This document shows, in pieces, positions 7,392-48,600 of a stretch of DNA of 64,000 nucleotides. This DNA comes from a virus (Duplodnaviria; Caudoviricetes), in the IMG/VR virus record IMGVR_UViG_3300021254_000035, positions 2,420-66,419 of that record; one strand, 5' to 3'. Both the position numbers and the translations under genes were made by a program. Every line of letters starts with the position of its first letter. Position 1 is the first letter of the stretch. Under the pieces are notes generated by a model. That model was given only the letters and a program-made list of their open reading frames with translations. It was not told the DNA's origin and searched no databases.

Positions 7392-8213
7392 ATGGAGGTA
7401 CAGATTAGTATTATCAGGAAGAAGGTGCTGCATGTGGTGGAGGGTTTGACGGCCACCATGTCGCAGCATAATGGAGGTGCGCCTACCTTTGAAGAGCTTT
7501 GGGCAAGTGTATCGGAAAGCAAGAAGCTTGATATATGGTGGCGTGACGGTATTCTGGATCTGGAAGAGAACCTGATGAAGTGGGCGAGTGCTACATCACA
7601 GCAGTATGATCTGGTGGCTGATGGCACGGACTACACGCTGAACCTTGTGGTGAGTGACCGATGGAGCGACAAGCTGACAGGACTGTTGGGTAACAAGATA
7701 CAGTATTACCTGGCACATGTGGTTGTAGCAGGCTGGCTTGGTGATTTCAGGGAGATCCAGGCACCTAACTATACTGAGCTGGCTGCAAACGACATGAAGA
7801 GTATCCTGAACATTCTTCTCTATCGTGAACTGGATTTCAGTGAGGATGAGCACAGGACTGACAGTGAGCAGGGTGACGGTTCAGGTGTTGAGGCTTCTGC
7901 TCACCGAACGGACAGTTCCCAGAGTGATTCAGGTGTTGAGGCTTCTGCTCACCGAACAGACACTGATCAGGGTGATGGTTCAGGACTTGGCGATGTTGTT
8001 TCTAGAGACAAGGATGATTCTTATGCCGGATGCTGTAGGAAGTCTGCAGACGGAACGAGCAGAGACAAGGACGATGTTTACATCAGACATGATGGTAACA
8101 AAAAGGATTGTGTTGACTATAACGGTGCTGGTGTGATGATTGGCAACAATGCGATGGACAGTCCGCAGGATGTGCTGAGGGAACTGAGATCAAGAAGACA
8201 CTTTGGCTTTTAA
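7392..8213 (+). CDS. Hypothetical virion protein with C-terminal low-complexity tandem repeats
   Basis: 273-aa ORF; HRTDS..GDGSGVEASA repeats. Confidence 0.6.
   Translation: MEVQISIIRKKVLHVVEGLTATMSQHNGGAPTFEELWASVSESKKLDIWWRDGILDLEENLMKWASATSQQYDLVADGTDYTLNLVVSDRWSDKLTGLLGNKIQYYLAHVVVAGWLGDFREIQAPNYTELAANDMKSILNILLYRELDFSEDEHRTDSEQGDGSGVEASAHRTDSSQSDSGVEASAHRTDTDQGDGSGLGDVVSRDKDDSYAGCCRKSADGTSRDKDDVYIRHDGNKKDCVDYNGAGVMIGNNAMDSPQDVLRELRSRRHFGF
7880..7957 (+). repeat. Intragenic tandem repeat, exact 30-nt core at 48-nt period
   Basis: ttcaggtgttgaggcttctgctcaccgaac at 7880-7909 and 7928-7957, with degenerate flanking copies. Confidence 0.9.
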
Positions 8214-19516: not shown

Positions 19517-19816
19517 TCACTTTTCTTTTCCTAATTCAAACCAACTTTCTTTTTCTTCCACTTCCTCCTTAACGAAGTCAATGTACTCCACACTGATCCT
19601 GTCAGCATCCACATCTTCCCTTAACAGCTTTCTTAGCTTTGCTGGAGGGAATACTTGCTTCCATCTGAGAGGACAGAAAACGGTGTAGTTTGCACCTTTC
19701 TCCGTAAGGTCATCAATTCTGTATGGAAAGCCATAACTCGATACAAAGCCTGATGTTTCCATTTTGAACTTTTTGAGTTCTTCGAGGCTATTGATGTTTA
19801 TTTTTCTCATTTTCAT
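19517..19816 (-). CDS. Hypothetical protein
   Basis: Start MKMRKININ at 19816 preferred; the upstream extension of the tracked ORF crosses structured RNA. Confidence 0.5.
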   Translation of the reverse strand: MKMRKININSLEELKKFKMETSGFVSSYGFPYRIDDLTEKGANYTVFCPLRWKQVFPPAKLRKLLREDVDADRISVEYIDFVKEEVEEKESWFELGKEK

Positions 19817-19836
19817 CACTTTTTTTTCGTTAATAT

Positions 19837-19935
19837 AAAGGTCTGAATACGGCAAAAGGGAACACCTATGTACTAATCGCGAAATTTCCACTGGCTGATA
19901 CCTTTTGATGCGCAATCCGCTTGTTTCAGACCTTT
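19837..19935 (-). ncRNA. Structured RNA element immediately 3' of tRNA-like RNA 1
   Basis: AAAGGTCTGAA/TTCAGACCTTT 11-bp closing stem, with an inner CAAAAGG/CCTTTTG stem. Confidence 0.5.
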
Positions 19936-19936
19936 G

Positions 19937-20052
19937 TGGAGAGGAGTGGATTCGAACCACCGACCCTTGGACTTACTATAAGGTCTTCTCGGGATATGTA
20001 CACTACCCGTGCCTTATATCGCCATCGCTCTTCCCGGCTGAGCTACCTCCCC
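19937..20052 (-). ncRNA. tRNA-like RNA 1 with an extended anticodon arm (116 nt)
   Basis: Acceptor GGGGAGG/CCTCTCC + A; D arm GCTC-AGCCGGGAA-GAGC; T arm GGTGG-TTCGAAT-CCACT. Anticodon loop replaced by stacked stems TATAAGG/CCTTATA and CGGG/CCCG with a 12-nt loop. Confidence 0.75.
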
Positions 20053-20479
20053 GTTTGCCCCATAAGTCTCGCATATATGCCAATTCTATTCGCTTGGTTA
20101 GGATATACAGGTATCTCTCCATTGCTTCGAGCTGATTGAGGAGTGCTGTCTGTTCCATATCTGGCAGTTTGCGGAATTCCTGTGAGAAGGAGAATTTGCG
20201 TCCTTTAAGATATCTTTGGCTTACTTCTTCTTTCTCGATCAGCATTCGGTCGTAGAAATTCTCAGAAGGTTTGTAGGCACGCTCAAATACTTCCTTTGGT
20301 GACCATGAGCGGTAGTTGTCACCATTCTCACCGTATTCTACCAGATAACCGGGTGTGATGTCACGATTCTCGACGGATGGAATGTCAATGTGACGGTTAA
20401 GTACTTTCTCGGCCTCGCCAAGAGTCATCGGACAAGCCTTTACGGTCTTAGTCCCTGTGAATTGTTTCATTGTGTTCAT
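20003..20479 (-). CDS. Two-domain small phage protein (GTK..KA.PM/GYLVEY/SWSPKEVFE domain plus crAss001_48-like helical hairpin)
   Basis: Motifs recognised by eye; the last 16 codons overlap tRNA-like RNA 1. Confidence 0.65.
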   Translation of the reverse strand: MNTMKQFTGTKTVKACPMTLGEAEKVLNRHIDIPSVENRDITPGYLVEYGENGDNYRSWSPKEVFERAYKPSENFYDRMLIEKEEVSQRYLKGRKFSFSQEFRKLPDMEQTALLNQLEAMERYLYILTKRIELAYMRDLWGKRGGSSAGKSDGDIRHG

Positions 20480-23527: not shown

Positions 23528-23657
23528 TCCCCCTGGTCGGAATCGAACCGAATCCTCCGAAATGCATGTTCCCTGAAAACAATCACTAAACCTCAAATAT
23601 CAAACATGACACATCTTTAACCATTTCGGTGCTCTTGCCAAAGAGCTTTTCAGAGGG
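23528..23657 (-). ncRNA. tRNA-like RNA 2 with an extended anticodon arm (130 nt)
   Basis: Acceptor CCCTCTG/CAGGGGG + A; D arm GCTC-TTTGGCAA-GAGC; 8-bp stem CCGAAATG/CATTTCGG enclosing a 57-nt insert; T arm TCGG-TTCGATT-CCGA. Confidence 0.75.
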
Positions 23658-24428: not shown

Positions 24429-25163
24429 TTGCAGATGGATGACTTTAATATGAAGATAATTGATGATACTGCAAACGAAAAGATCCTTCAGGATGAAGAA
24501 AGAAGGAAGAGAATAGGCAGGCTTATAGAAATGGAAGGCTTGTCCCAAAGGAAGTTTGCGCTTAAAATTGGAGAGAATTATGGTAATTTCAACAAAATAA
24601 TGTTAGGTGCAAGGAAGGTTCCAAACAGTCTTCCTGCTAAAATCGCAGAGGTCTTTACTGAAGTTAGGCTTAACTGGCTGTTGTATGGAGAAGGCGAGAT
24701 GTATAAAGGTGACCAGCATCTAGCTGAAGCTCAGGCTTTGAAAAGGCACATGGATCAGCTACCCACAAGACCGCGATTACCTAAGAGCATGTCAGAAGGC
24801 CATATCGAACAGTATTACGGGAATGGAAAGAAAAGGGTTCTTTGCCAAGAGGAACCTATTGTAACCCAGTTCTCAGACTACGATTTTAGTTTGATCATGA
24901 AGAACAATCGTATGTCGCCAAAGTATGAAAGAGGTGACGAGATTTTCTTTAAGAAGGCTTCGTTCCCAGAATGGGGTAATGATTTTCTGTTGGATACCGA
25001 CGATGGCCCAAAATTCAAGCGTATTTTTGAAGCCACCAATAAAAAGGGTGAAGAATGTGTGAGATGTGCTTCATACAACAGTGAGGAGTTTCCTGACTTC
25101 TTGATCAAAAGAGATCTTGTTCACGAGTATTACAGGTGTGTTGGTGTGTTGAGGATATTATAA
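24429..25163 (+). CDS. cI: CI-like repressor (HTH plus S24 peptidase-like domain)
   Basis: LSQRKFALKIGENYGNFNKIMLG..NWLLYGEGEM; C-terminal NNRMSPKYERGD...FKR. Start uncertain (24435 or 24450 likely). Confidence 0.8.
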   Translation: MQMDDFNMKIIDDTANEKILQDEERRKRIGRLIEMEGLSQRKFALKIGENYGNFNKIMLGARKVPNSLPAKIAEVFTEVRLNWLLYGEGEMYKGDQHLAEAQALKRHMDQLPTRPRLPKSMSEGHIEQYYGNGKKRVLCQEEPIVTQFSDYDFSLIMKNNRMSPKYERGDEIFFKKASFPEWGNDFLLDTDDGPKFKRIFEATNKKGEECVRCASYNSEEFPDFLIKRDLVHEYYRCVGVLRIL

Positions 25164-26747: not shown

Positions 26748-27006
26748 TTAGTAATTTGTTTACCAAAAAACAGAGTGAGTTAATAAATATCTGAAAACCA
26801 AATAAATATGAGCGGTATAAGTAATTCCCAAGCCGAGGGTCGCGGGTTCGAGTCCCGTTTACCGCTCTATATTGATAATCAGTTAGTTAGAGAGTTGTTC
26901 TAATGAGTTATCAGTGGAAATAATCAAGAATTTGAGATAAAAATTGGTGTTATAAAGGGGTTATTTGGGGTTATTCGGAAGGCGTTTGTTTAGTAGATTG
27001 TTTACC
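26748..27006 (+). repeat. Candidate integrase arm-type sites flanking the attP core
   Basis: TTAGTAATTTGTTTACC (26748-26764) and TTAGTAGATTGTTTACC (26990-27006), 15/17 identical direct repeat. Confidence 0.6.
26825..26867 (+). mobile_element. attP core: 3' half of tRNA-Gly(CCC)
   Basis: TT-CCC-AA-GCCGA-GGGTC-GCGGG-TTCGAGT-CCCGT-TTACCGC-TC: anticodon loop through acceptor 3' strand, no D arm, just upstream of the integrase. Confidence 0.85.
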
Positions 27007-27050: not shown

Positions 27051-28253
27051 ATGAAGATTCATATTTTGATAGATAATCAGCATGTGCATGAAGATGGTAC
27101 TCATGACCTATATTTCAACATCACAGCAGATGATGGAAAGAGATTCAGGATCAAGACGGATATCAGATGCACCCAGAAGCCAACAGGTTTGTTGTTCCCA
27201 AGAACAGAAAGGAATAGTGTTGCCAAGTCGGCACGACTGAGAGATCTCTATGACTTAGCTGAGGCTTTTGGTCTAGAAAACCCACACATGAGAAGTGACA
27301 GACTGAAAAACGAGATATCCATCATCATTAAAGGTAAAGGTGTTCATTCCAAAAGAGAGGGGAAGGTGTTTGCCGATTATGTTCTGGAGTTTGCAGAGAC
27401 AAAGGATAACTCCAGCACAAAGATCCTATATGAGCTTACATATAATAAGGTGAGGGAATATGATCCATCTGCCACCTTTGCAACAATGGATGAGGTGTGG
27501 CTGGAAGACTTTGAAAGGTACTACAGGAAAGCTGGCATGAGTATCAACGGTGTTGCTCAGCAGCTGAGAAACATCAGAGCCGTATTCAATTACTGCAGGA
27601 AGAGGAAATATACAAAGGAATATCCGTTCCTAAACTACAAAATAAAGGAGGAAAGGACTCCAGTTGACAGCCTGAGTGTTGAGCAGCTGAGGCAGCTTCG
27701 TGATTATCCAGTAGAAGCCTGGCAGAGAATCTACCGAGATCTATTCATGTTATCCTTCTACTTAGGCGGCATTAATGCTGGAGACTTACTTTTGTGCAAG
27801 AGCCTGAAGAATGGAAGGTTTGTCGAAAAGCGAAGAAAGACCGGAGAACTTATCGATGTACCTGTGTGCGATGAGGCTTTAGAAATCATTGAAAGATGGA
27901 AAGGGAAGAACTATCTACTGTGTGTAATGGATGGATACAAGGACTACCATGACTTTACCGCCAGATGGAACAGAGCTTTGAAGAAGATTGGCACGTCAGA
28001 AATCGTTCCTGACAAGACGGGGAAAAGAAGGAAGATTCTTTACCATCCTTTGTTTCCTGATATCACTACCTATACCGCACGCTACACATTTGCAAGCCTT
28101 GCAGCGAATGATTTGGAGATTCCATCAGAAACGATTGGCAAGTGCCTTGCTCATGCCTGGACTAAGAGCACTGTGACAGCAAGATACATAAGTGATGACC
28201 GAAGGAAGGTGGATAAAGCCTTTGAGAAAGTGATAAGATACGTAAGAGGATAA
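27051..28253 (+). CDS. int: Tyrosine integrase
   Basis: SAM-like domain (NGVAQQLRNIRAVFN) and catalytic region KRRKTG..TTYTARYTFAS..LAH..TARYI; next to attP. Confidence 0.9.
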   Translation: MKIHILIDNQHVHEDGTHDLYFNITADDGKRFRIKTDIRCTQKPTGLLFPRTERNSVAKSARLRDLYDLAEAFGLENPHMRSDRLKNEISIIIKGKGVHSKREGKVFADYVLEFAETKDNSSTKILYELTYNKVREYDPSATFATMDEVWLEDFERYYRKAGMSINGVAQQLRNIRAVFNYCRKRKYTKEYPFLNYKIKEERTPVDSLSVEQLRQLRDYPVEAWQRIYRDLFMLSFYLGGINAGDLLLCKSLKNGRFVEKRRKTGELIDVPVCDEALEIIERWKGKNYLLCVMDGYKDYHDFTARWNRALKKIGTSEIVPDKTGKRRKILYHPLFPDITTYTARYTFASLAANDLEIPSETIGKCLAHAWTKSTVTARYISDDRRKVDKAFEKVIRYVRG

Positions 28254-30649: not shown

Positions 30650-33600
30650 ATGAACAACGATAATCTACGTAACCTTTACAAAACGTTTGAAAAAGAAGGC
30701 TATGAGATGCCTTCATACGAAGACTTTGAGAAAGACATGCAGGACGATAACAATCTGCATGATGCGTGGGAAACCCTCAAAGGTGATGGTTACGAACCTC
30801 CAGAGTATGACACCTTCAAGACCGATATGGGATTTGGTGCCGCGCCAGAAGCGCAGCCTGCTGAAACCGTATCAGTTTCAGGGCAGGGAACGCCACAAGT
30901 GAACTATAGTCAAGCTGTGTATGATCGTTACGAAAACCAGGTGCCAAAGCGTACAGGTAACAATGATGCGGTAGTGCAATCGCTTGATGAGATAGCCGCT
31001 GAGATGGAACGTGAGAAGCCTGGTAGTAGTAAGCCTGGATTCTTTGAAGGAATGAGTTTTGAAGGAATGGGTAAGCAGCTAAAGGAAGGTGGAAAGAATG
31101 TCATTGGCAAAATCCTAGGCTTCTTCGACAACAAACAAGATAAGGGATCGATAGGAAATATGGAAGCCGCTGCCATGCCTACGGAGGAACAGATGGTGCA
31201 GCATGGTGGAAGTATTGGTTATCAAGCTGGAGAATCAGTAGGAACTTTGGCAGACACAGCTGGTACTGGTGCTGTTGTTGGTAATGTGATACAAAAGAAC
31301 GCACAGCCTGCATTCTATGAAGAACAACAGCAGAGAGTTGATCCTGCAAAGCCACTTGTTGAACAGGAGTTAATGAATGATGACAGAGGCTTTGGTGAGT
31401 TCATGCAGCAGGGAATAGATCGTTTCAGAAAAGGTCAACAAGAAACAGATCCTACTTTAGACGATGAAGGTAATCAATTGCAAATACCTTTGTACAATCA
31501 AGAAGCAGCTCTTAGAGGTGATATCCAGCGCATTGATGCTGATGTGATGAGGAAGTTCAACGAAGAGCTTGCAAGTAACAAACAACAGGCTGGCGAATAC
31601 ATGCGCAACACACCTGGTAATCCATTTGCACCTACTGAAGTAAACTTGATGAATATCGGAAGGGAAGCCAACAAAATAGCGGATCCTTCAAAAGCCATCG
31701 AGTCAGCCATCAAGTATGCTGATGAACAGACAAAGGACATGCCTGATGAGGTGAGATACCAAGTGATTGAAAGCCTGTTAGGGCAGATGGAAGAGCAGCT
31801 GATTAATGAGCGTATTCCTTCAGGAACTGCAGAATATGTATTCTGGAGAGGATTCAAGGACAGTGACCTTGGCAGGATTATGTCATCGGTTGTTGATACC
31901 AACTACGAGAAATACCTTGATCAAGTTGCTGCATCCCGTTACAAGGCAGGATTCTGGGAAAATCTGGGTAAGGGAGCAGTAACACTGGCCAGTGACATGT
32001 GGGAATATGTACTTCCCGCAGGAGCTGCAGGAAAAGCAGGTAAATGGGCAGGGGGAAAGATCTCAGGAAGGATCATGAACGACCTTATTCGTAGAGGCGT
32101 TCCCAAGTCGCAGGCTGCAAGGATAGCTGAGCGATTGACAGCCAATAGTGTAGGTAAGAGTATTCTGCAGCATGGAGCCAGCAATGCAGTGACCTTTGGT
32201 ACTGCAGGAGCCATCAGTGGAGCTGTTGAGGGATTGACAGAGCCTGCAACGGTTGACGGAATGAGTATTGAGCGTGCGCGTATGGAGAGAGATATGCACA
32301 TGCCCGATCCAATATTTGGAGTTGACCAGCATGATGCCCTTGATGCTAAGATCAAAGAAGCTGAAGCCGAACAGTACAGTGCCAAGAATCTGTTTGGTAA
32401 GATATTTGAACGTGCCGCATGGGGTGTTGGTACTGGTGTGGCCACCAGCTTTGGTGCACCTCTAGGTGAGATCATCGGCCATGGCCGTGGTGTGGCAGGT
32501 AAGATTCTTGGTGATGCCACCCGCTTAGGAGTGAACGCTACCGCCATGACTGGAGTAGGTGCATTGGAGCAAGCTACCACTCCTGGAGCGCAGCCGTTGA
32601 CATTTGAAGATTTGTTGCTGGCTGAGGCTAACAACCTTCTTACCTTTGGAGCATTAGAGGCAAGAGGTATCTACAACCGAGCAAAGAACTATCGCAACAT
32701 CCAGCAGTTTGAGAAAGCATACGACATTACAGATGCTGACAAGGCGAAAATGAAGGATCTTGGCTATGGTGACATGCTTGATGCTGTTGAGCAGCTGACA
32801 ACTGGTAAGACTGCAGGAGCGCAACCGGCAGAAAAGAAACCGAATGTCATCACAAGGCTTGTGAACGGTGAGCGGGTGTCGGAAGTGAAGATGCCACAAA
32901 CCAAAGAATCCAGCGGAGTTGATCAAGTGGAGTCACAGAACCTGAAGAATGGTTTGCAGCAGCTTGTGAATGACTACAACGCTGGTAGGATCAGCGAGGA
33001 AGAAGCCCGTAAATGGTATGGGCTGATTACTGGTGACTATTCACAGCAGTTACAGCCGATAACAGGTGTTTCCCAACGTACAGACATTTCTCCTGAAGGG
33101 AAAGTGCAGCACTTTGTTGACTATCTCGATGCTCAGGGCAGAAGAGTACGTACGGTTGAGGCAAAGACCGAAGAGGAGGCCAAGCAGCTGTCGGATGACT
33201 ACCGCCAAGAAGCACAGCTTAACCAAATTTCCGCTTTGGAGGATATGGTGACGGATAAGGATGTTCAGGAGCATTTTGCCGAAACAGTGCGCAGAGACTT
33301 CGGTGGATCGTCAGGTTCCGAAACTGAAGGAACGGAAACAATAAGTACAGGTGGAGTACGTGAGAAGATCGACCGTCTTAATGATCTTCGTGCCAGGAAG
33401 AAACTGCATGAGATGGGTGAAGGTAAGGCACTGACCGCCGAAGAAGAACGGATGCTTGAAGAAGGATTAAGTACCTATGAGCGTGATGTAGCCAACATCT
33501 TCGGACGAGAGGATCAGTTGCAAGAAGCATTGCAGAAGCAAGCTGAAGGCGGTGATCTGTTACCATACGAAGAATCGTTGATCCAGTCGGCACAGAATAT

Positions 33601-36600
33601 ATACAGGAATCATGCTGGCCATAGCAAGGCAGCAAGTGACTTTGCCCGTGAGTTTGAGAAGCGCAACGGTATGGAAGAAGGAACGCTTTCACAGATCTTG
33701 GAAAAGAAAGATCGTAGTGAGGCAGAGCAGAAAGCCGTTGATGACTATGTTACCGACTTGCAGGAATATCTGAGACCGAGAACGGAGCAGGTAGAGATTG
33801 AAGAAGCTGGAAATCCCACAACTAATGCGACGGAAAGCGTGGTTGATATGGCACCAGGTGTAGAACCGCCAACTGAAACGCCCGCTGGAGATGCAGCACA
33901 AACAGCAGTTGCTAGTGAGGCATACAGCAAAGGCCAAGCAGCTGTGCAGGCTAATGACGCTGCAGCCATGAGAAACATCGGCTATGAGATGCAGAAGGCC
34001 GACGCGAGAATGTCTAAACTGTTTACCGATGATGAAGCCAAGGCTATTTATGATGCTGTTGAGAGTGGTGATGAGGAAGCTTTGGCTACTGTAACACAGA
34101 AGCATACTGAACCAGCTAAGCTGGATGCTATTGAGAAATTAAAGGAAGCCCATGATGCCATGAGAGGTATTGAGGATGCTATCAATGATTCATACATTGG
34201 TAATGATGAGGCTATCCGCGCAGAGATTGAGCCTTATCAGAACGAGCAAGGGGAGATTGTGTTCTTGAAGCTATCAAACGGCAGCTCTGTGTATTATGTT
34301 TCTGGTGACCTTAACAATGCTTATGGTACTGTTATGGTTGCCTATACGGGCGAAGATGGATCTGTTCGCCATGCTCAGGTTCCAGTCAAAGAGATTACTG
34401 AGACAGGCACACCTGTAGGTATCGATGACTACGTTCAGGTTCGAGCCGAGATGGATAGAAAAGTGGATGATGAGCGATACAAAGGTATTATCAGCGGCAC
34501 AGAACTTAGAAAGGGTAATCAAGTTGAGCTTACAATGGGTAATACAACTGGTGTGTTTACCGTAGATGGGTTCTTTAGTAATGGTGATGTGCAACTGAGA
34601 GATGAAAACGGTGGTGTCATACGCATGACTAAGGATGAGGCTTTGGAAATGATGCAGGCCACCGAAGATAAGCGCATTAATCAAGATTTGGCTGATGAGC
34701 AGGCAGCATACAAGGAGGCTGAGCGAGTTAGGCAGGAGGAAGAAAAAGCCCGTTTGGAAGCCCAGCGGAAGTTTGAAGAGGAACGCCGAGGGAAGATTGC
34801 CGAGATCCAGAAGACTGTTGTTGATGAAGCTGCGGCACGACCACAGCCTACTGAACAAAATGAAGAGGCTACTAAGTGGAACGGGCTGGCCATTGCCGAT
34901 GTTGCCGATGCTGAAGGTGTGAGGAAGTATCTGCTTGACAAATATGAGAGCGAGGCCGATGCAGACACATTCATGAATGAGCAGCGAAGGATCCTGAAAA
35001 GTCACCAGCGCGATGAGATTCAACCTGAGATAGACAAGATTCGCAAGCAGCTTGATGATTATACAACAGGTAAGGTTGAGCTTAGTGATGAAGAGCTGAC
35101 CGGCTTAATCACTCAGTTGTCCGGGTGGGAAACTGAGCAGAACCGTTTGAACGGTGTAGCTGAAGCCTTGAAGGATATCTCTGATGCTTTGCCAAAGACA
35201 TACGCTGAGCGTAATGCAGATGTCTTGAAGAATTCTACTCCTTATGAGCAGCGAATGGCCGAGTTATCCAAGGCAAGGACAAACGAAGACAAGGTACGTA
35301 TTGCCAGAAAGCTGTATGGCAATGATCCTGATGTTGGTACATTGTTTGATGATCTTGATGTTCCTGCAGATGCGACGGAGCTTGTATCGATGTTCCTGAA
35401 ACCGAGAGTGCTGAGATGGGAAGGTGTTGATCAGGGAGGTGTTCACCTGAGAGGTGTTGAAGACGAGCTGGGTAAGCACATGAAGCGAGGTGTTGGACGC
35501 AACGTTGACAGTAACAACATCAATACATTCCTTGCCGCCAAGGGTGAAGGTAAGACTGTTGACGAGTTTGTTCACGACATTTGGGAATCGCCAGAGAACC
35601 ACCCTGTTGGAGCGGAAGAGAAACGCTTTGACGATACTGAAATCCGAAATGCACTTATTAACCTTCTTCTCTCTGCCAAGAATCCGACTGAGATCAGAGA
35701 TTTGATTATTGATGGAAGGATTGCCGAAGCAGAAAGGATTTTGAAAGAAGTTCAGGACAGAGAAGAAGAGTATGAAATGCAGTCGTGGGCTGAGTCTTAC
35801 CATCTCCCTGCATCGGAAAGAGAAAGCTATGAGAGTGAATTGTTACGTGTCGGTGAAGAATATTCTTCGCTCAGTGATGATGATATTCAGAAAATTAATG
35901 CTATCTTTGCAGAACAAAACGAGTTAAGAGATGAACAAAATCGAAGAAGCCAAGAAATGGATCGCCAGCCTATCGTCGCAGGAGCTGGTGGAGAAGGTTC
36001 AGGAGGCCAAGCAGAAGTACAGCGACAAGGTGCCGAAGCTGATGTTACGAAAAATCAAGGAAGGCAAGTCAACAGAGAAGGAGAAAACCTTACAGATGGC
36101 ACAGCTGTTCCTGGTTCAGATGTGGCTGGAGGAGCACAAGGAGAATTTGAGCGATCAATAGACGAGCTTGGAAGGATAGAAGAAGAGTGGAACGATAAGA
36201 TTTTAGACTACGTTTCGCAGCACTATCCGACGCAGGCTGTTGTATCAGCGCAGACTAATTCGCCCAAGGGCAAGGCTGAACGCAAGGCCATGCTGGAAGA
36301 TCCTGTTTATCAAGAAATGGTACGCCAGCAAAAGGAGGCGTTGGATGCAGCCGACAAGAAGGTTACGGAAGCATACAAGAAAGAGGAGGAAAAGCAAGCT
36401 AACTTGAAGCCTAAGACGGAGTTAGAAGATAATCAAAACTACTCCAACGAAGAACGAAAAGCACTACAGTATGTTGATGGTGAGAGTATCGACGAATACG
36501 TGAAGCGTAACGATGGTATTGCCATGAAGGAAAAGTTGGAAGAAATGTATCTTCGTGGCAAGTATGGTGATCAGTGGAATACGATTGAAGAACTGTTCAG

Positions 36601-39600
36601 TAACAAACTGACAAATGAGAATGCCTATGATATGGGCGTGCGTGCTGGCAGCATGGTTGAGGACAATCATGAAGGCTATGCACTATTGAACCTCCTAAAC
36701 AACATTCCTGTTGATGCAGTGCTGCCATTCTATGATGGCGTGAGCAGTTTTACCGCAAGGCTTGCAAGAGCAATCAACGAGACCAACACAAACCCGACGG
36801 ACGGCCAGAAGGAAGCTGGTAATTACAAGAAGGGACATTTGCAGTTTGGTGGTTACAACTTTACGGTTGAGAACCCAAAGGGTAGTGTGCGCAGTGGTAA
36901 GGATGCCAGCGGCAAGCCGTGGAGCATTACCATGCACAACACATACGGTTATCTGACCGGCAAAGGAAACCTTGGCAAGGATGGTGACCATCTGGATGTG
37001 TTTATCAATGACGATGCAGATCTCGACAACTGGAACGGGAATGTGTTCGTAGTTGATCAGGTGAACAGTGACGGCAGCTTTGATGAGCATAAGATCATGT
37101 ACGGCTTCGACAACGAGGTTGATGCTCTCAGGAACTACCTGATGAACTACAGTAGGCCATGGCATGGCATGGGTAACATTACAGGTGTTGACAAGGCCAC
37201 CTTTGACAAGTGGGTTGAATCAAGCAACCGTAAACAGAAGCCGTTTGCCGAAACAAGGTTTGGTGACAACAGGGATGTTGTGGAGAAGGTGATGGATGGC
37301 ATTGAGAAGAAGAAGGAAGTTGCTGATCTGAGCGAACCAAAGATTGAGAACAATCATCCTTCTTCAAAAGTTATACAAGGTCTTGAAGATATAACTGTAG
37401 AGGATTTTCTTGAAGGTGTACGTGGAGATATAGAAAGCATTCTTAGTGATAACGATCTTTCGGATATTGTTACCATTAAGGGTTTAGCTCTTCATGGAAG
37501 TCGTATGCGTGGTGATGCAAGAGAAGATTCCGATATTGATGTTGTGGTGGAATATGAAGGAGACATCAGTGAGGATGGGCTATTTAATATTCTCAGCGAT
37601 GCCGATTTGGCTGTCAATGGTATTCCTGTAGATATTAATCCGATTACCAAAGGAAAAAGCGGTACACTAGAGCAATATATGGAGCAAAGCCGTAAGTATG
37701 ATGAAGAAATAGCTAAGAAAAGACAAAAGACAGAACAATCTAAATATCAATTATCATCTGAAACAGATTCAGAAGGAAACAGATTTTTTGAGAAAGAAGG
37801 ATCAATAGATTTGTGGACACTTCCAAAACTCTTTGCAAAGGCAAGACGGCAAGATGCCCCAATACGTTTAACAGAACGCAACCTTCAACACATTATTGAC
37901 GAACATCACAAAGAAATCGGTAATACAGATGATGTGCTTGCATTCCTTGATAATATATTTAATAACGCTCCTGTGCTCAGAAAAGCTAGAGGAAGAGGAA
38001 TGTTTGTGGTTGTTGAGCAGGAAAAAACTGATAAAGCAGCCATTATTAAGTTGATGCCAAGCGAAAATGGCGATTATTACAACGTTGAAACAGCTGGCTA
38101 TTACCGAAAGAATAAGTGGAAGGAATATGAAGATGTGATTGCTGATCTGCGCGAACCAGATCAATCAGATGCCGTTACCGATGTCTCTAAGCCCCAAACT
38201 TCCAATCAAAACGGCAGGAAGTCGATTAACGCTGAGACGCAAACTTCATCTTCTGAGGGCAAAGATAAGAAAAATATCGATACGCTCCAAGAAAAAGGGA
38301 ATAAAAATGCGAAAAAGAATGAAAACAAGATTGAGGATGTTGGCGAAGTGATTGCAGGTGCCAGGAAAGACATGCGCCGAAAGATTGCCGAGAGTATAGA
38401 CAGTGCCACCGAGAAGACACTGATTGACCTTCCATTCTCGAAAGCCTATAAGAAGCCAGACTTGAAGAAAGCTGTTGAAGAAGGTGCGCTCAGGGAAGAG
38501 GATGCCACCTTCTATGATGCATTCTTCTCTACCATGGTCAACCCAAGCAAGCCCAAGGTAGTACAGTCGGAACTTCGAATGAAGAAGTGGAAGCCTGACT
38601 ACAAAACAAAGGTTGAGAGATGGGCTGAGGCTACTCATGAAGCCCTGCAGGTTTTGAAGGAGTTTGTTGAAGCCACAGAGGAACAGCGTGATGAGATCAT
38701 CAGAAAGGCACTAGAAAACAAATATCCGATGCGTGATGTTGAGCTGGCTGAGATTGAGAAGCGCAAGGAATGGAACAAAGACCGTGACTTCAAAGCTGGC
38801 GACAAGACCACACCCAATCCGTTGTGGGTGACATACGAGGTAATGAAGCAGCTTGACTACAAGCCAGGAGAGAAGCTTGATATTCCTTATGGACTCCTGA
38901 AGGCCGACGCACACGGTACGGGATATTACCTGTATAACGCCAAGAACGAGACAAACTACAATTTCCATCCGCAGAGTGTAGAAGATGGAATATCGGATAT
39001 CGTATGGCTTGCAAAGCTAAAGCGAGGTGATGCTGATATTCAACATCCTATCAGCTCTTTCAGTACACCATCTACCAAGAGCGAGACAGGTGAGACTGGT
39101 CGCTACAGAGTTATTTGGGGAGGATCTAACATCAAGACAAGAGACTTTGACAACAAGAAAGAGGCAGATGAGTTTGCCGCCAGCAGAAAGCAACAGTCAC
39201 TTGTTTCACCCATTCGAGAGGTGGTACGTCGTTTCGGTTACAAGGTTGTTTTCCGTAACCCACTGACTAATGACAAGATCGTTGTAGATGATCAGGAATT
39301 TGACACTAAGAATGAGGCACAAGCCTATCTGGAAGACAACTATGATGAGCTGAACGAGAAGCTGAATAATATTCTTTCAGAACAGAGGAAGGATAAAAAG
39401 AGAACGGAACTTAAAGCAGATGACCTGGTATTCGTGTCCATGGTTAGAGGAAACGATAACAAATGGACATACGGTGTGATCATGGATAAGAAGTACGCCA
39501 ACTACTATGGTATGCCTCGCGTTCTCAAAGAAGGCTTTGCAACCCGTGATGAGGCTAAGAAGTATGCTGAAAGCATTAAGGATGAGGTTTTCAGTACCTA

Positions 39601-42600
39601 TAAGAACTATAAGACAAAGCAGAAGAACATTGTCTATTTTGATACTGGTGAGAATTCCAGACTTGGTGAGGATTACCGAGGCGGCAAGGATGTGAGTGCA
39701 GAGGATTTCATGAACACATTCGGATTCAGGGGTGTGCAGTTTGGTAACTGGACAAACCAGGCAGACCGCCAGATGGCCGTTAACCAAGCTTATGATGCTT
39801 TCCTTGACTTAGCTAAGCTTATAGGTGTATCTCCACAGGCACTGAGTCTGAACGGTGAGTTAGGTATTGCATTTGGTGCAAGAGGTGCTGGAGGCTTTGC
39901 CGCCCACTATGAACCAGGAGAGATTGTCATCAACCTGACTAAGACACAAGGTGCAGGCAGTCTTGCACATGAATGGTGGCACGCCCTGGACAACTACTTT
40001 GCAAGAGCAGCTGGAGAGAAGGGAGGCATGGTTACTGATGACTCCAGACTGGAGATGCGTCCGGAGCTTCGAGATGCATATAACACATTGACCAGACAAG
40101 TTGCAGCAAGCAAGTATTTTGCACGTTCAAAAGCCAAAGGCGACTACTGGGGACGTATGCATGAGGTTACAGCCCGATTGTTAGCCGAATGGGTAGATCA
40201 GGAACTGAAGAAACGTGGTGAGTTGAACACTTTCCTTTCGCGAGGTGCGAACACTGAACGAACGATGGAGAATAACTATCTTTTCTATGAGGTGATGCAA
40301 AAGATCGCAGGAAAGGAAGTAATGCCATTTGAAGAGTTCAAAAAGACCGACGAAGCCATGAGTGGATCGCCTTATCCATCAAAAGCTGAAGTTGACAGCT
40401 TTGCTGATGCCATGCGCAACATCTTTGACGTGATGCAGGAGCGAAAAGATGAAGAAACGGGTAATATAATGCTTTATGAGCCTGATTTTGAGTATAATGC
40501 TCAGGAACCGAGACCACGCAGAAGGAACCCGAAGGTGGTAAGCCATATAGAAGGTAACCTGTTCCCTGAAGAGAAAGAAGGCGAGTTGTTTGATGATAAG
40601 AAGGCCGCGGCAAAACCGCAGCCTACCAAGAAGCCAGAAAGCAAGCTGGAGAAGTTGAGTGATAAGCAGCTGTTGGAAGGTATCGGACAGAACGCTAACA
40701 GCAAGGACTGGGATCTGTATATCGATGAGTATGACAAGAGACACCGAGATGAGTACCAGGATGCTTTGGCCGCATACTCAGACATGCTGGAGAAAGAAAA
40801 CGTCAGTTTGGAAGATGCCTATGGCATGTATGCTGATGTGGCAGCCAAGTGGAACGACAAGGGCTTTGCAAGTGATGAGCGCAGTAAGCTGATGGCTCAG
40901 GTGGATGCACTGGAGGAATATGTTGACCGGCTGGAGAGCGAAGCTATTGAGCGTGAGGAAGCCGAAGAGGAAGAAGCCGCTGCAAAGCAGCAGCCTGCAG
41001 AGAAAAAGGCACGTTATGAAGAGGATAAGACTGATGTAAGAGCGCATGGTTACGACTTGACCAAGATCAGGCTAAGAGAGCTTGGTGAAGGTGAGGTCAG
41101 CCATGTGGAGAGACGTTATGTTGAGAACGGCTCATTCTCGTTTACAGGCGGTGAACATATTGAAAGTGCCGCCGATGTAGCCTACATTTTCAGGCAGCTA
41201 GAAGATGCAGCCGTAGAAAACTCCTTTATGGTGTTGATCAAGGATGGTGTTCCTACGGTTATCCATCTTGCAATCGGTTCATATAATGCTGTTCATGCAC
41301 CCATCGAGCAAGCTTTTGCAGCATACAAGGAGATTGATCCCGACAATGTTATTTTCCTACATAACCATCCAAGTGGGAACTTGGTAGCTAGCCGAGAAGA
41401 CCTTGCATTGCAGAAGAAGGTGGAGGCCATGTTTGGTAGAAAGGCTCTTCCTGGCATTATCATTAATACAAAAAGTGGTAAGTATGCAGAATTCAACAGC
41501 GAAGGGAGCAATCAAATTGGTTTGCGTCCAAAATCTGTTGATAAGGATATTCCTGTACGTGTATTCAATTTCTCCAAGCAGGTGTTTGCAAAGGACTGGA
41601 ACCCAGAGACAGCTTTTGAAGGTAGCGACTCGCGGAGCATGGCTGCATTCGTGAGCAGTCACAGACTTGGGGATCACAACAAGATGAGTCTGATTGTGAT
41701 GGATCAAGCTGGTCATATCACTGGTAATATCTTCCTTCCATGGACTACCACCAACGAAATAAGCAAACAAGCCAATGCGCTGCAGATTGCCACCTATGTC
41801 AATCAGATGGGTGGAAGATATGCTCTTATTTACGGTAATACGACAGTTACTGACAGCAAAGACATCAAGATATTGAAAACAAACCTTGATGGATACAATG
41901 TTAAACTTCGTGACGTTATGACCATTGAAGGCAGTGCACATGATAAAGGTTTGCTTTTTGAGCCTGATGTGGTGTATAAGGGCAGTGCCAAGGACATGAT
42001 GGAAGCTGTAGGAAAGCAATATCATGGAAAGGAAATGGTGTTCTTAGACAAGACTCATGGCGAGGAGCAGCTGTTGAAGGATCTTGGTATGTATGACGAA
42101 GTGACCAAAATGAAGGGATCACCTGAATATGATGCCATCATGGAGCATTTACGTAAGAATCTTGGAAAAGCAGGTGCTTCTTATAACCGAGATACGAAAA
42201 AAATATATATCTTTGCACCAGAAATGACTTCTTCTTATGCAGAAGAGGCATATTTCCATGAGAATATCCATGCCATTCTTGATGATTGGTATGGAGATGG
42301 CAAGAGAACGATTGCGGAACGGTTCTGGAACGTCATGCCAGATGACGGTAAGGTTAATAAGGCATACGTTAAAGAAAAGAGTACCGATAAATCAGAGTAC
42401 GCAGAGGAGGCATTTGCCTATTGGCTGAGCCGTTCAATGCAGGACGGTGATGTTGCAGACTTCCTCAATTATTTTGACGAAGCAGATAAAGAGAGAATTA
42501 ACAATATTCTTAAAACATTTGGCTATGACGCAGAAAAAGAATCAGAAAGAAGAGTTCGTTTGCGGAGGAATCAACATGTTTCGGAGGCTCAAAGCGGATA

Positions 42601-45600
42601 TTCAGAAACTGACGAAGGGTTATCAAGATCGGAAAGCGAAGGAAGCGGAGCAGGAGTAAAGAGCGGTACATTGGCCTACATTAAAGATGTAACCTTGCCA
42701 TCCGAATCCAGCACTTCGGCACAAGGAGACCAATATACTAAACCTGCTGGGGTTGACTCTTCTGAAGGCAAAGATAAGAAAAATAGTGATACGCTCCAAG
42801 AAAAACCCCAAAAATATGATTATGGGGAGATAAACACTGGCGAAAAGGAACGCGAAGCAAAGGAGCTGGCTACAAAGGCAGTGATGCAAGTGCTTGATAA
42901 TTCTGGTGTGAGCTACCATGAGGTAAGCCAGGCTGAGGCTATGGCTGTGCTTCGTAAGACGCAGGCACTCCGTGAAGGTCGTTCGTTCCATGTGGATACC
43001 CCTGTATTTGTGAGCAATGCATTGAAAGCTGTTGAGGGTATCAGGCAGGAAAAGGCCACGCCTGAGCAGTGGCTGGCCATGATTCAGAAGAACGGCGGCT
43101 TGAAGGCCGGAGAAGATAAATGGCTTGGCCTGAGTGACTGGCTGAAGGAACAGGCGAGCGCAAAACGCTCACTTACAAAAAATGAAGTGCTGGATTATAT
43201 TCGTGAGAATCAGATACAGGTCGAGGAAACAAACTACAAAGAGTACTTCGATGTTGATGACAATCCTCAGATGCAGAAGTTCCGCAAGGAGTTCGATGGT
43301 CTTGTTGAAAAGTATGAGAGCGAGAAAAACGCCGTTGAGCAAGAAGCAAACACGTTCAACGACGAGATGTATCAAAAGTATGGAGGAGGCTGGGCAAACG
43401 ATCCTGAAAGGCTTAACGAGGAAGATAGAAAGCGAAACGACGACATGGTTGAACGTTGGAACAACATGAATGACAGTGATCCTCATGATCTTGCTTTCCG
43501 GGAAATGGTTGATAATTACGGAGACGATTTCGAAATGGCCTTTGAGGTGAACTACGGTAACGGGAATCTGGAGCCTCAGATGGATATGTATGATGAAGAG
43601 ATTTCAGATGCAGCCAAACATTTCCTTCAGTTTGAAGATGAACCCATTAATTCCACTCGTTTGAGTTACACAACTGAAGGATTAGAGAACAAGAAGGAGA
43701 TTGCCCTAACCGTTCCAACTATTGATCCGTACAACGAAAGCGACAATATTCACTTTGGCGATGCCGGAGGTGGACGTGCTGTTGCGTGGATTAGGTTTGG
43801 TGAAACAACACTACCTGAAGATGGAGGCGAAAAGAGAAGGGCTGCAGAAGCGATTGAGGCTGATAATGCCAAATGGTATGCTGCCCATCAAGATTTTGCC
43901 CGATACGGAATTGGTGATGCCGACGGATCCTTATCGAAGGAAAGTGAAGAGCGTAACGAGCGTCAACGTAAGGCGTTCGCAGAAGCCTATGCCGTTCCAC
44001 AAACCCGCAAGGTGCTCGTGATAGATGAGATTCAAAGCAAGAGGCATCAAGACGCACGAGAGAAGGGCTACATAAGCGATGATGCGAAATCCAGGTTGGA
44101 AGAAGCACGCAAAAATGTAGATTTTGCTCAGCAGGAATACGACAACTATGTCGTCATGCTGAAGAAGCAGCACAAAGGAGAAGCGTTTGAGGATTTCTAT
44201 TCCGATTTGCCAGTCCTGCAAAGAGAAATGGTTGACAGTCTTGAACAGGATGTATATAAAGCATCAGAGGAGTTTGAAAAAGCATCAGAAGCAGCAAACA
44301 GCGTCCCCGACGCCCCGTTTGAGAAGAACTGGCATGAACTGGCCATGAAGCGTATGCTCCGCTATGCTGCTGAGAACGGCTACGACAAGATAGCCTGGAC
44401 TACCGGCGACCAGCAGGCTGAGAGGTATAATATCGGCAACGTCGTGGAAAAGATCATATCCTATGACTATCCTGAGGTGAATGATCCTGACGGACGCAAA
44501 ACCAAGAAGATTGAGGTGCGCTTGAAAGATGGTGAGACAATGACAATGCGTGTTGGTCAGAACGGTAAGGTAATAGAGGGACGAAGTGACACCGAGGGTA
44601 AGGATCTGACGGATGTTGTTGGCAAAGAACTTGCCAAGCGAATCATGGACGGCGAAGGAAAAGATGGTACGATTTTCGATGCCAACAAGGATCTTCCAGC
44701 CAAGGTAATTGAAGGTGAAGGTCTCCGAATCGGTGGCGAGGGCATGAAGGGTTTCTATGACCAGATGATACCGAGATTTATGGATAAGTACGGAAAGAAG
44801 TGGGGTGTGAAGACTGGTGAAGTGGAGCTTCCTGGACTTGCTCCCGCTGGAAAGTACTCTTCAAAAACGGCCAAGATGTGGGCTATTGATGTTACTCCAG
44901 AGATGAAGGAGAGCGTGATGCAGGGACAACCTATGTTCAGTGTCGCAGGCAAGGAGCCAATGGTTACCTCAGAGGGAGTTGTATATGGATATACGGACGG
45001 TAAGGATATCTATTTGACAGATGAGGGAATTAATCCTGAGACTCCAGCACATGAGTATGGTCATCTTTGGGTGAAAGCCATCAAGAAGAACAGACCTGAT
45101 CTTTGGGAGAACATCAAGGATCTGATGAGAGAAGATGAGGTCTCTCAAAAGATCTACCAGAAACTGCTTGGTGACAATAACTACAATCAGATCCATGGTG
45201 ATGAAGATGAGCTTTACGAGGAGGTGCTTACCAACATGGGAGGTGCAAAGAACCGCGAAAGGTTTGAGCAGGCTGCAAGGGAAGTTCTTGATGAAGCTGA
45301 GGGCATGGATGAGACCATGAAGATTGCAAATGTGATCAGCAAGATTCGTCGTGCTTTCCGTAAGCTGTGGGACTGGATTGGTAAAGACTTGTTTGGAATT
45401 AAGAAGTTCAAGAGCGTTGACGAGGTTACCGACAGGATGATGTATGATTTTGTTGAGGGTACGGACGTGAAGACTGGAGTTGAGGATGCTGTAATAAAGC
45501 AGCCTACAGAACCAAGAAATGTTTCTTTCCAGGCAGGTAAGGGAAAGCCAAGGCAGAAGAAAGGCGAAGGCATGGCTTCGTACTTCAACCGACTGAGAGA

Positions 45601-48600
45601 GTGGGAGAGAAGGAAGATGGCCGAAGAGGATGAAAGTGATCCTATGCCTATCATGCCCGACACTGAAGGTATTGAAGACTTTGAGGAGCTTAAACGTATT
45701 CAAGACGAATACCGAAAGCTGTACCAGGAATGGGAAGTGAGACACGGTATTGCTGATTTGGAGAATGCTGATCTTGGTCTTTATGATGTAGCAACAGGGA
45801 AAAAGGATGTATCACAGCCTACCGAAGAAGAACAGTTGCTGGATCAAGAGATTGATGCCAGGGTATTGCAAGACATCGGTAATGCTGTTGGCTTTAACAC
45901 AACTCCAGAAGGAGCACGCAAACAGGTGAAGTATGCTGTTATTAACAGAAGAAAGAATCTGGAAAGTGCGAGTGCCGAAGATGCCATATTTATTCACGAC
46001 CTGACAAAACGACTCGATGATATAGCTAAGAACATATCCTCACAGGGAGGAGAAAAGGTTACGGGCAAGATGCTGAGGGAAGCTTTACCCGACATCATTG
46101 AAGGTACATACGGCTATGATATTGTGAAGGCTGACAACGGTGAATGGATCAGGATGGATCACAGAGCCGCTATGCCTATTCAAATGACACCATCTTTGCA
46201 GAAGGTTCTTGATGATATCAAGGACTGGTATGATGAATTCTATCATGTTCTGGAGGATGCAGGATTGAGAGGCAATGCTGGATATATTGCCGAGGGCTAT
46301 GTGAACCACATCTGGGATAAGGAAAAGAGTGATCCGAAGGCATGGAAGGAGTATGTTGAGAACTATCAGCGTACAAAAAGCCCGAATATGAAGAAGAGAG
46401 AGATTCCGACGTATGCTGAAGGTATTGCTGTTGGGTTGGTTCCAAAGTTCACTGACATCACCGATATCATGTCATACTATTCAAGGAGCAACAACGAAGC
46501 TGTTGCCAACAGAAAATTCCTTGATGATCTGGCTTGTATCAATATTGATGAGCTGAATAAGGATGGCGAGGTAGTGAGATCATTGCCTTTGATTACTAAC
46601 GTTGAGCCGTACCATTTGGATAAGGAATCATATACTAAGCCATACGATGTTCCTGGAGTGGGTGATGTGTGGGTACATAAAGCAGCAAAGCAGCGTTTTG
46701 CCAGCGTGTTCGGTACGATGAGAACAGCGGATATTCCTGACTGGGTTCATAGTCTTGGCAAAGGTTGGGACGTTATTGGTGGCACAGCTAAGAAGATACA
46801 GCTGAGCTTTAGCGGTTTCCATGCAGGAGCCTTGACGGAGGTTGCTTTGGCACAGATGCGTCCTGACAAAGGCATGAGGGCATTGATGGAGTACGTCGTA
46901 CTGGACAGCATCAAGAAAGGCACTTTGCCAGCTTACGCCCATCCAGAGGACTTTAAGCTTGCTGCAAAACATCTGGTCAACCTTGGTGCTACCGCCGACT
47001 ATGCAGCTGCAGACGTGAACATGATTACCGAGAAGCTGAGGAACTTTGTACGAGATCTTGCCAATGAGCAGAACTTGGCAAAGAAAGGTATAGGAAAGGC
47101 CATGACACCTGTAGCAGCGATGCTTGACTTTATGAACAAGGGAATGGACACTGTTCTTTGGAACTATATCCATGATGGTTTCAAGATTGCCTGTTTCAAG
47201 ATGTTTGCTGAGCAGGTTGAGAAGAGACTGAACAAGATTTATGGGCAGAATGGGCTTGATGGGCAGAATGGGCTGAGTAAGGAAGAGATGAGAGAACAGT
47301 TACTTGATGAGGCTGGACAGTATGTCAACGACACGTTTGGCGGTCAGTATTGGGAACTGTTGGGTGTCACACCGGCACAACTCAAATGGATGCGCAGAGC
47401 CTTGCTTTCACCCGACTGGCTGGTGAGCACACAGCGTCATTTCTTGGCAAACTTCGGAATCGGCAGCTTGTATAATGAAGGTGGGTTCCTGGAGTATATG
47501 AGATACAACGCCGACAACTTGAAACGAGCTTTTGGTGTGGACATACCAAGGAATGAGTTAAGAAGGTTTAGGAGCAAGAACGCCAAGCAGTGTTACATCT
47601 TGGGCGTATGTGTATTCTTCTATAGCCTGATGAACGCCATCAATGCCATTGTAAGAAAGTCTGATGAGGACAATGAACGCATGAAGGCAGAGGAAATCAG
47701 AAAGACTGATCCAAACTACCGTTCACCCTACGAGCTTGCTTATCCTGAAGGCATGAAGTGGTATGACTATACCATGTATGGCAATACGATTGGTCAACAG
47801 ACACACCTTCTTCTTGGTCGGTACAAGGATGGAACCGAATGGTATGCACGATGGGGTAAGCAGTTCAGGGAATTCCCAGAGTTGTTCATGGGACGGCATG
47901 GTGTTGAGTTCCCAGCCCCGATGATCGAGCGCATGATGGGTAAATCAAATCCAATGATCAGCTACATCCGCGACGGTCTTGGCACCTTGGATGTTCACGG
48001 TTTTGACATTCCGTATCAAGAGAAAGAAACTGTTGAGAAATACGGCAAGGAGATAGCTTTCCTGTCAATGACTGCCAAGCATTTCCTTCCGTTCAGTGTT
48101 CCTACGCAAGCAGACAAGGAATTCAAGACATGGGATTTGGTTATGCCTAGTCAGAAGGGATTCACTCGCTGGAAGGCCGTTGATTTCTTCAAGACCTACA
48201 TCAATGCTGGTGATATGCACGGAATAGAACGCACATACCATGCAGCTGTGATGAACAACCTGAATGCTGAGGAGTGCCTGCAAGCAGCTATAGCAAGCGT
48301 GAAGGCCACCCAGAAGAAGGAGCTGGTTGATGGTGTTACTGATCTTCCAAGTGCATTCGAGGCATTTGACAATGCTAAGACATTGAAGGAAAGACAACTG
48401 ATGCGAAAGAAGATCATCCAGTATATGACCGGTGAAGACTACAGGGCATTTACCATGGCTGATGCAAGAGAGAAAGCATTATCATTCTGGGAAGGTGATA
48501 AGGAACAGACAATCACAAAGGATAATGACAAGTACATCATGCAGGCCACAGCTGAAGATATCCGTGATGACTATAAGATGGATGCCCTATACAAGAAGAG

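Follow-up and report, generated by a model that had tools for sequence, protein, structure and literature searches.

A tRNA-shaped gene with an enlarged anticodon region occupies a strain-variable slot beside a Sequestin-family gene in a temperate phage

Is a phage gene that has the body of a tRNA and lacks a canonical anticodon loop a tRNA gene in decay, a tRNA gene interrupted by an intron, a DNA element whose RNA shape is incidental, or the gene for an RNA that uses the tRNA frame without decoding? The question is raised by RNA1, a 116-nt gene in the window (the whole stretch of 64,000 nt analysed here), which comes from a 66-kb IMG/VR virus record rated complete. The CI-like repressor, the integrase with a tRNA 3' fragment upstream and the DnaD-like replication gene encoded in the window mark the phage as temperate (Table 1). 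Near-identical phage DNA was found in bovine and sheep gut runs and the nearest prophage relatives sit in Prevotellaceae genomes; the phage comes from ruminant guts and its host is probably a member of the Prevotellaceae. The fragment just upstream of the integrase joins a T arm (GCGGG-TTCGAGT-CCCGT) to an 8-bp helix like that of an acceptor, has neither a D nor an anticodon arm, and is probably the attP copy of the 3' end of a host tRNA. More than a quarter of the genome is taken up by a single 6062-aa ORF of the polyvalent-protein type (30650-48838, plus strand).

The tRNA shape of RNA1 lies beyond chance. On the minus strand, read from 20052 to 19937, the Rfam tRNA model RF00005 matches it over model positions 1-71 with 42.6 bits, against a gathering score of 29 and with an E-value of 1.1e-5 for the whole window, so the tRNA-like gene is real. 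The canonical acceptor, D and T arms of the original prediction were all recovered: a 7-bp acceptor (GGGGAGG/CCTCTCC) that includes a G3.U70 wobble, a 4-bp D stem (GCTC/GAGC) with a 9-nt D loop that has GG inside it, a T arm (GGTGG/CCACT) whose loop, TTCGAAT, is of the TTCRA type, and a 5-nt variable loop (GGGTC). It is at the anticodon position that RNA1 departs from the model, for there the alignment holds 51 nt in place of the expected 9, an excess of 42 nt. CAAA stands directly 3' of the discriminator, so CCA is not encoded. RNA1 shares the ending A-CAAA with RNA2, a second tRNA-shaped gene, and the two do lie in one early leftward operon, as had been proposed. The shared ending is not a mark of design: a genuine Prevotellaceae tRNA-Met gene has an A-CAAA trailer too, and we therefore take it as the sign of an ordinary tRNA gene end.

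Table 1. Features of the RNA1 locus and of its surroundings in the window.
Feature	Position	Strand	Basis or remark
RNA1, 116-nt tRNA-shaped gene	19937-20052	minus	Rfam RF00005 and sequence reading
RNA1 acceptor stem	20046-20052 with 19938-19944	minus	sequence reading
RNA1 D arm	20027-20043	minus	sequence reading
RNA1 T arm	19945-19961	minus	sequence reading
RNA1 discriminator A	19937	minus	sequence reading
RNA1 anticodon-position region	19967-20025	minus	weak closing stem UGG/CCA and 51-nt cargo
Strain-variable cassette, 234 bp	19828-20061		RNA1, 9-nt leader GGGGCAAAC and 99-nt element
99-nt element	19837-19935	minus	11-bp perfect terminal inverted repeats (AAAGGTCTGAA); between RNA1 and conserved trailer
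Downstream 99-aa gene	19517-19816	minus	no known family; conserved right flank of slot
Sequestin-family gene	20003-20479	minus	PF21825, anti-Thoeris 3'cADPR sponge family; Pfam E 2.6e-11
RNA2, second tRNA-shaped gene	23528-23657	minus	early leftward operon; Rfam does not reach RNA2
CI-like repressor	24429-25163		
Mini tRNA-like piece	26810-26870	plus	just upstream of integrase
Integrase	27051-28253	plus	

The complementary blocks TATAAGG/CCTTATA and CGGG/CCCG and the 12-nt loop sequence TAGTGTACATAT, from which an extended anticodon arm had been proposed, are all present in the insert, but the single arm built from them does not exceed chance. With that arm RNA1 folds at -32.2 kcal/mol, or at -34.3 kcal/mol at best when the stem at the anticodon position is forced; the minimum free energy structure, at -38.0 kcal/mol, has two separate hairpins, which leaves the proposed arm 4-6 kcal/mol worse. 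Compared with shuffled sequences, the whole of RNA1 has a z of -1.25 and the cargo alone a z of -0.85. The stem at the anticodon position has only three pairs and is bordered by A.A and C.U, and a single extended arm in RNA1 is a possible structure on these folding models. The word TAGTG, to which the same prediction had drawn attention, does occur in the 12-nt loop of RNA1 and in RNA2; by our estimate it is not significant once all possible words are allowed for, and TTTAGTG likewise fell short after multiple-word correction. No homologue of the cargo was found in IMG/VR, GenBank phages or 201 Prevotellaceae genomes. For the RNA1 body or cargo, exact-pattern scans of IMG/VR, a pattern search of genome contigs and blastn against GenBank phages gave no match, and the sole BLAST match in the 201 Prevotellaceae genomes was to 27 nt of the 5' half of a host tRNA-Met. 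Within the phage, the cargo has no antisense target with a complementarity of at least 10 nt, and its single match of 13 nt in the same sense, at 41392, is about what chance would give.

RNA1 does not have the 5-bp anticodon stem, the 7-nt loop, the U33 and the purine 37 of a decoding tRNA. ARAGORN found no tRNA in the window when run without introns and no tmRNA when asked for one, and with introns allowed it offered only a poor 'Tyr(ata)' model for RNA1. Could RNA1 nevertheless decode after removal of its insert? Such an intron, lost by some route as has been proposed for the 'enigmatic introns' that Lak megaphages carry in tRNA-Tyr(GTA) and other tRNAs (PMC6784885), would leave a product with a Tyr(GUA)-like arm, and we consider it unlikely. 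Every contiguous segment was deleted in turn, and the remainder had to offer a 5-bp stem in which 4 or more positions pair, a loop of 7 nt that has both U33 and purine 37, and a variable loop of 4-5 nt. Under these strict rules there was no solution for RNA1, for RNA2 or for the related RNAs L205, L333, L346, L320 and L100; two other relatives, L349 (loop UUUGGAA) and L226, did give canonical arms after one excision, as an intron would have it. Relaxed rules allow 42 nt to be removed from RNA1, which leaves ATGGA-TAGTAAG-TCCAA and earns 111 points from ARAGORN as tRNA-Tyr(GTA). This best excision, however, carries A33 in place of the near-universal U33 together with an A27.A43 mismatch, and a score of 111 is not special because every RNA tested except RNA2 reaches 105-120 after some deletion. 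The 3' 25 nt of RNA1, which make up a T arm and acceptor strand of the bacterial tRNA-Tyr type, are those of a true tRNA-Tyr in 106 of 120 metagenome matches and so speak for an intron; its 5' half, by contrast, is a class I body, unlike the class II tRNA-Tyr of bacteria, and for L205, whose body is the same, no Tyr solution exists. Nor did a splicing route come into view. An archaeal-type intron was rejected, as the folds inspected have no bulge-helix-bulge and place internal loops of CGA/GUAAGU and CA/AGAAGA around a 7-bp helix. A group I intron or small self-cleaving ribozyme was rejected too: no such match, or any further one, was found by Rfam in the RNA1 region at E up to 10, the insert of 42 nt is too small when group I introns need about 200 nt or more, and at E up to 1 the inserts of the relatives matched neither a ribozyme nor a group I intron. 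No RtcB gene was found in the phage.

The acceptor stem also fits a Tyr decoder poorly, since G3.U70 would bring alanine charging by AlaRS. This enzyme ignores the anticodon, and the identity set of G3.U70 and A73 needs none; RNAs with that set could therefore still be charged, as tmRNA is. RNA1 has both in its 7-bp acceptor helix, and they occur in six of the seven RNAs that share the RNA1 body, compared with none of 105 genuine tRNA-Tyr genes with the same 3' strand, all of which have A3-U70. RNA1 may thus be a substrate for charging with alanine, to judge from its G3.U70 and A73. The exception among the seven is L349, which has G3-C70, so alanine identity is a lead and not a rule of the family. 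No single type of host tRNA stands out as the parent of RNA1, with Met, Pro and Ala about equal, and tRNA-Ala genes were not found in three MAGs.

What sets the locus apart is that the content of this position changes from strain to strain. DNA contigs of four other ruminant samples, runs X2-X4 among them, match both flanks of the RNA1 cassette and break exactly at 19827 and 20062, and in runs X3 and X4 the 234 bp are replaced by 592 other letters. We surveyed this slot in contigs fetched via variants of the Sequestin gene: L344, L349, L352, L354 and L205 all lose similarity to the window at 20062, and both the leader (CACAGCGGTGGGGCAA.C, a hairpin) and the trailer (…AAAAACAAAGT.ATG) are shared by the slot relatives. 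Between these ends lies a tRNA-like gene of 106 nt in L205, of 195 nt in L349 and of 234 nt in L352/L353. The closest relatives of the window, L344/L345 (97% identical over 4.4 kb), have an extra 95-aa gene and a normal 72-nt tRNA-Gln(UUG) in the slot, and L354/L355 retain the first 25 nt of the tRNA-like gene only, joined to the 3' half of the 99-nt element in what is a deletion relic. Elsewhere in L344, at 7951-8025, there is a near-threshold match to the Flavo-1 RNA motif (37 bits against a cut-off of 42) that has no counterpart in the window. In IMG/VR the nearest relative, G001, shows only patchy relatedness and lacks a tRNA-like gene, and 80 IMG/VR loci around Sequestin homologues hold normal tRNAs only, save for an odd 87-nt one in L002/L004. 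The latter gene (454-540), from more distant Sequestin-carrying phages, scores 35-37 bits in Rfam and has a long extra arm and a 6-8-nt loop with CTTATAG, a heptamer also present in the centre of RNA1.

A slot with such contents could be a place where tRNA genes die. It is a real possibility, though on balance not a probable one, that RNA1 is a once-working phage tRNA whose anticodon arm was scrambled by indels and rearrangements and of which nothing useful is left, except perhaps a site at which RNase P/Z separates cistrons; a relic kept for cutting alone is the middle case. The normal tRNA-Gln(UUG) at the same place in the closest relatives and the relic in L354/L355 both agree with decay, as do the deletion upstream and the inverted-repeat insertion downstream of RNA1 in the window's cassette, a cargo that folds no better than shuffles behind a weak closing stem, and the restriction of that cargo to this genome within the databases searched. 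RNase P requires the acceptor-T domain only, which would account for a centre that runs free inside a conserved body. The body itself, on the other hand, is free of damage. RNA1 and L205 are identical at 25 of 25 positions at the start (the 9-nt leader and the 16-nt 5' end) and over the last 32 of 32 nt, which makes 57 of 57, around D loops and centres that are unrelated. The neighbouring Sequestin genes of the same two phages are 92.4% identical over 422 nt, and at this rate of difference (7.6%) about four changes would be expected in 57 nt, where none is seen. Identical ends around a swapped centre could, however, result from recent recombination and not from selection.

Other relatives tell against decay in a different way. 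L349 differs from RNA1 at six stem positions and retains all pairing, with the G-C pair 50:64 turned into A-U and the rest being G-C/G.U swaps, and the stem changes of L352 keep pairing throughout as well. Across six RNAs with the RNA1 body, three of them (L226, L320 and L154) from unrelated metagenomes, 99% of stem cells are paired, against 52-64% when the partners are slid; the body stems have two compensatory pairs, several GC/GU changes in either direction and no broken pair. The conserved body suggests that the tRNA shape is under selection or that the ends were exchanged very recently, in a sample that is small, with about four lineages at the RNA1 locus. Decay, moreover, predicts shrinkage and scattered point changes, not repeated gains of 35-160 nt in one arm, and the same pattern is seen in two slots of these phages.

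At the RNA1 locus the constant body carries unrelated centres in RNA1, L205, L349 and L352. No significant similarity links the centres of RNA1, L205 and L349 (z below 2). In L349 and L352 the inserts have the same inner flanks, and each RNA folds into a long rod whose apical core differs between the two; weak as it is in RNA1, the extended anticodon arm is thus a typical feature of the family. The original prediction would have been undermined by homologues that have a normal loop and leave the insert as a unique disruption. The closest relatives do have a normal tRNA in the slot, but it is a different tRNA, and most relatives with the RNA1 body carry inserts, the exception being the distant L154 of normal length (about 70 nt); the insert is therefore not a unique disruption. 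The verdict of design over decay holds in part. The body recurs with other centres, its stems keep pairing and excision fails to restore a decoding arm, but the relic in L354/L355, the cargo with no homologue and a fold at the level of chance stand against it. Should RNA1 be no more than a tRNA in decay, the locus still documents a fast turnover of phage tRNA genes beside anti-defence genes.

The second of the two slots holds RNA2, which has an 8-bp stem at the anticodon position and an insert of about 57 nt. RNA2 is 98.7% identical in L344/L345, where both of the two changes turn U-A into U.G in predicted stems, and in other relatives its position is taken by other insert-bearing tRNA shapes, those of L333 (113 nt) and of L346 and L352 (146 nt). 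Since L344/L345 carry RNA2 as well as the normal tRNA-Gln, odd and normal forms coexist. Unrelated metagenomes gave two further RNAs. L100 (6999-7111 of an IMG/VR contig, 113 nt) has the T arm and acceptor strand of RNA1 with A3-U70 and the ending A-CAAA, and L320 (804-913) combines an RNA1-type T arm and acceptor strand with an extra D-loop hairpin, which is palindromic, and an enlarged anticodon arm. A covariance model of the RNA1 body matched ordinary host tRNAs in every genome and is therefore not specific; its one long insert-bearing match, L362, is a 194-nt tRNA-shaped gene in Prevotellaceae genome G057 (contig 35, 93891-94084; GGCGCGG…CCGCGCC) with an insert of about 120 nt in the anticodon arm.

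The slot lies in an accessory, anti-defence neighbourhood. The family PF21825, now named Sequestin, has been shown to sponge the Thoeris signal 3'cADPR (bioRxiv 10.1101/2025.07.12.664507), and the window's gene would, by its membership of that family, have an anti-defence role. RNA1 overlaps the end of this ORF by about 16 codons and the stop, much as had been noticed from the outset. The 19-residue tail of the ORF (WGKRGG…RHG; 20003-20061, minus strand) is the translation of the RNA1 leader and 5' half, and in the tail alignment the relatives of the protein end in another, conserved tail (…SVRTIESCRATMAGRDDAPLAQC.GTV). The window form arose by deletion of the usual Sequestin tail and of a spacer, as a consequence of which the ORF now reads through the 5' half of RNA1. 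A cut by RNase P at 20052 would leave a Sequestin mRNA without a stop codon. On the other side of RNA1, the 99-nt element is present as a single copy in the window; L205 and L344 lack it. It could be a small piece of DNA that is mobile or recombines readily. With such an element next door, sharp cassette boundaries, and palindromes in inserts or loops (TGTACA in RNA1, TGTATACA in the D loop of L320), one may ask if the insert of RNA1 is itself a small mobile or recombination-prone DNA, or a protein-binding site with TGTACA at its heart. We regard this as highly improbable: the cargo has no second copy in the window or in the databases searched and no visible terminal repeats or target duplication around it, and a DNA element leaves the conserved tRNA body unexplained.

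Our tentative preference, held with a little less than even confidence, is that RNA1 is the gene for a non-decoding, tRNA-scaffolded RNA that is matured by tRNA enzymes. We favour it because the body is intact and conserved, because one arm has repeatedly gained new sequence, because this is seen in two slots and because excision fails; the fold that is no better than shuffles, the arm that is not the minimum free energy structure, the 3-bp closing stem, the relic and the deletion-derived arrangement of the window count against it. RNA1 would then be one of a small family of RNAs whose genes occupy a 'tRNA slot' immediately after the Sequestin gene in temperate, Prevotellaceae-type ruminant-gut phages, a family that would keep the tRNA body intact (acceptor, D and T arms, elbow) and exchange the anticodon arm for a phage-specific centre of about 35 to 160 nt. 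It would be transcribed within the early leftward operon, excised by the RNase P and RNase Z of the host and given its CCA, as a tRNA is. A scan for sigma-70-type promoters and terminators, a type of scan that does not extend to Bacteroidota promoters, gave nothing above shuffles. No RNA run turned up for a 6-kb stretch of the phage, and the metatranscriptomes of the source sample contain next to none of its sequence words. The mature RNA would read no codons and might act through the variable centre that its stable tRNA frame presents, or else by mimicking a tRNA body. An ambitious version of this scaffold reading, which we think has a low probability, makes the body a plug-in frame, chargeable with alanine and matured by the host, whose swappable cargos are exchanged by recombination at the constant ends and act in the conflict between phage and host, for example as RNA decoys or sponges; its place beside an anti-Thoeris sponge gene would thereby be explained. 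A decoy for anticodon nucleases is an unlikely role because RNA1 has no anticodon loop, and service as a processing signal is a possible one.

How does RNA1 compare with known systems? The tRNA genes of Lak megaphages, whose hosts are of the Prevotella type, contain the 'enigmatic introns' already mentioned (Devoto et al. 2019, PMC6784885). The Lak genes resemble RNA1 in that they are enlarged by tens to about 100 nt at the anticodon region, follow no known splicing route and were found from sequence only. For the Lak A1 tRNA-Tyr in its Table S6, removal of the insert restores a normal anticodon arm, whereas in RNA1 and most of its relatives it does not, and the Lak case as described there is unlike that of one body with unrelated centres at one locus. 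In phage T4, rnaC (species 1, 139 nt) and rnaD (species 2, 119 nt) are annotated as stable RNAs in AF158101. They are, like RNA1, small phage RNAs with no assigned function, and in rnaC a T arm of the tRNA type (CCGGG-TTCGAAT-CCCGG) is combined with an end that resembles an acceptor. Both T4 RNAs fail the Rfam tRNA model, unlike RNA1 with its complete D arm, T arm and acceptor; they bear no obvious relation to RNA1 in sequence, as judged by eye, and are encoded with tRNA genes in the tRNA cluster of a lytic coliphage.

RNA1 resembles tmRNA in the tRNA shape of its acceptor and T arm, in G3.U70 and in the large stretch of non-tRNA sequence that stands where a tRNA has its anticodon arm. The tRNA-like domain of tmRNA is charged with alanine without an anticodon. 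RNA1 differs in having no tag reading frame, pseudoknots or reduction of the D arm, and is far smaller. Closest in architecture is the 'tRNA scaffold' that Ponchon and Dardel reportedly engineered in 2007, in which a foreign RNA placed in the anticodon stem is said to be processed by the tRNA enzymes of the cell and to be stable; the scaffold is man-made, and the body of RNA1 may serve such a purpose in nature. In YrlA RNAs the molecule ends at the anticodon side and the acceptor is closed. These bacterial Y RNAs, which act with Ro60 and occur in some phages, join a tRNA-like module to a protein-binding helix (Chen et al. 2014, PMC4201824). In RNA1 no Ro-binding helix motif was seen by eye, and the 66-kb genome has no TROVE/Ro60 gene (PF05731), of which the host could have a copy. 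Beyond the Lak 'enigmatic introns' we found no literature on phage tRNA-scaffold RNAs with variable centres other than mentions in general terms, such as that of 'tRNA or tRNA-like' candidates in phages (PMC10690425).

New here is the picture at the level of the locus: one body with unrelated centres fills a single slot that in sister strains is taken by a normal tRNA or by a relic. The place of this slot beside an anti-defence gene and the alanine type of the acceptor are new as well. If RNA1 is made and is stable, phages have long used the tRNA frame to let the cell process and protect an arbitrary RNA, in the manner that engineers devised in 2007. A constant body with unrelated centres beside a counter-defence gene would then point to a class of accessory factors that are made of RNA and escape standard annotation: tRNA finders reject such RNAs and Rfam files them as tRNA. 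The tRNA 'introns' of the Lak megaphages and the 50-year-old stable RNAs of T4 would, if this is true, be seen in a new light.
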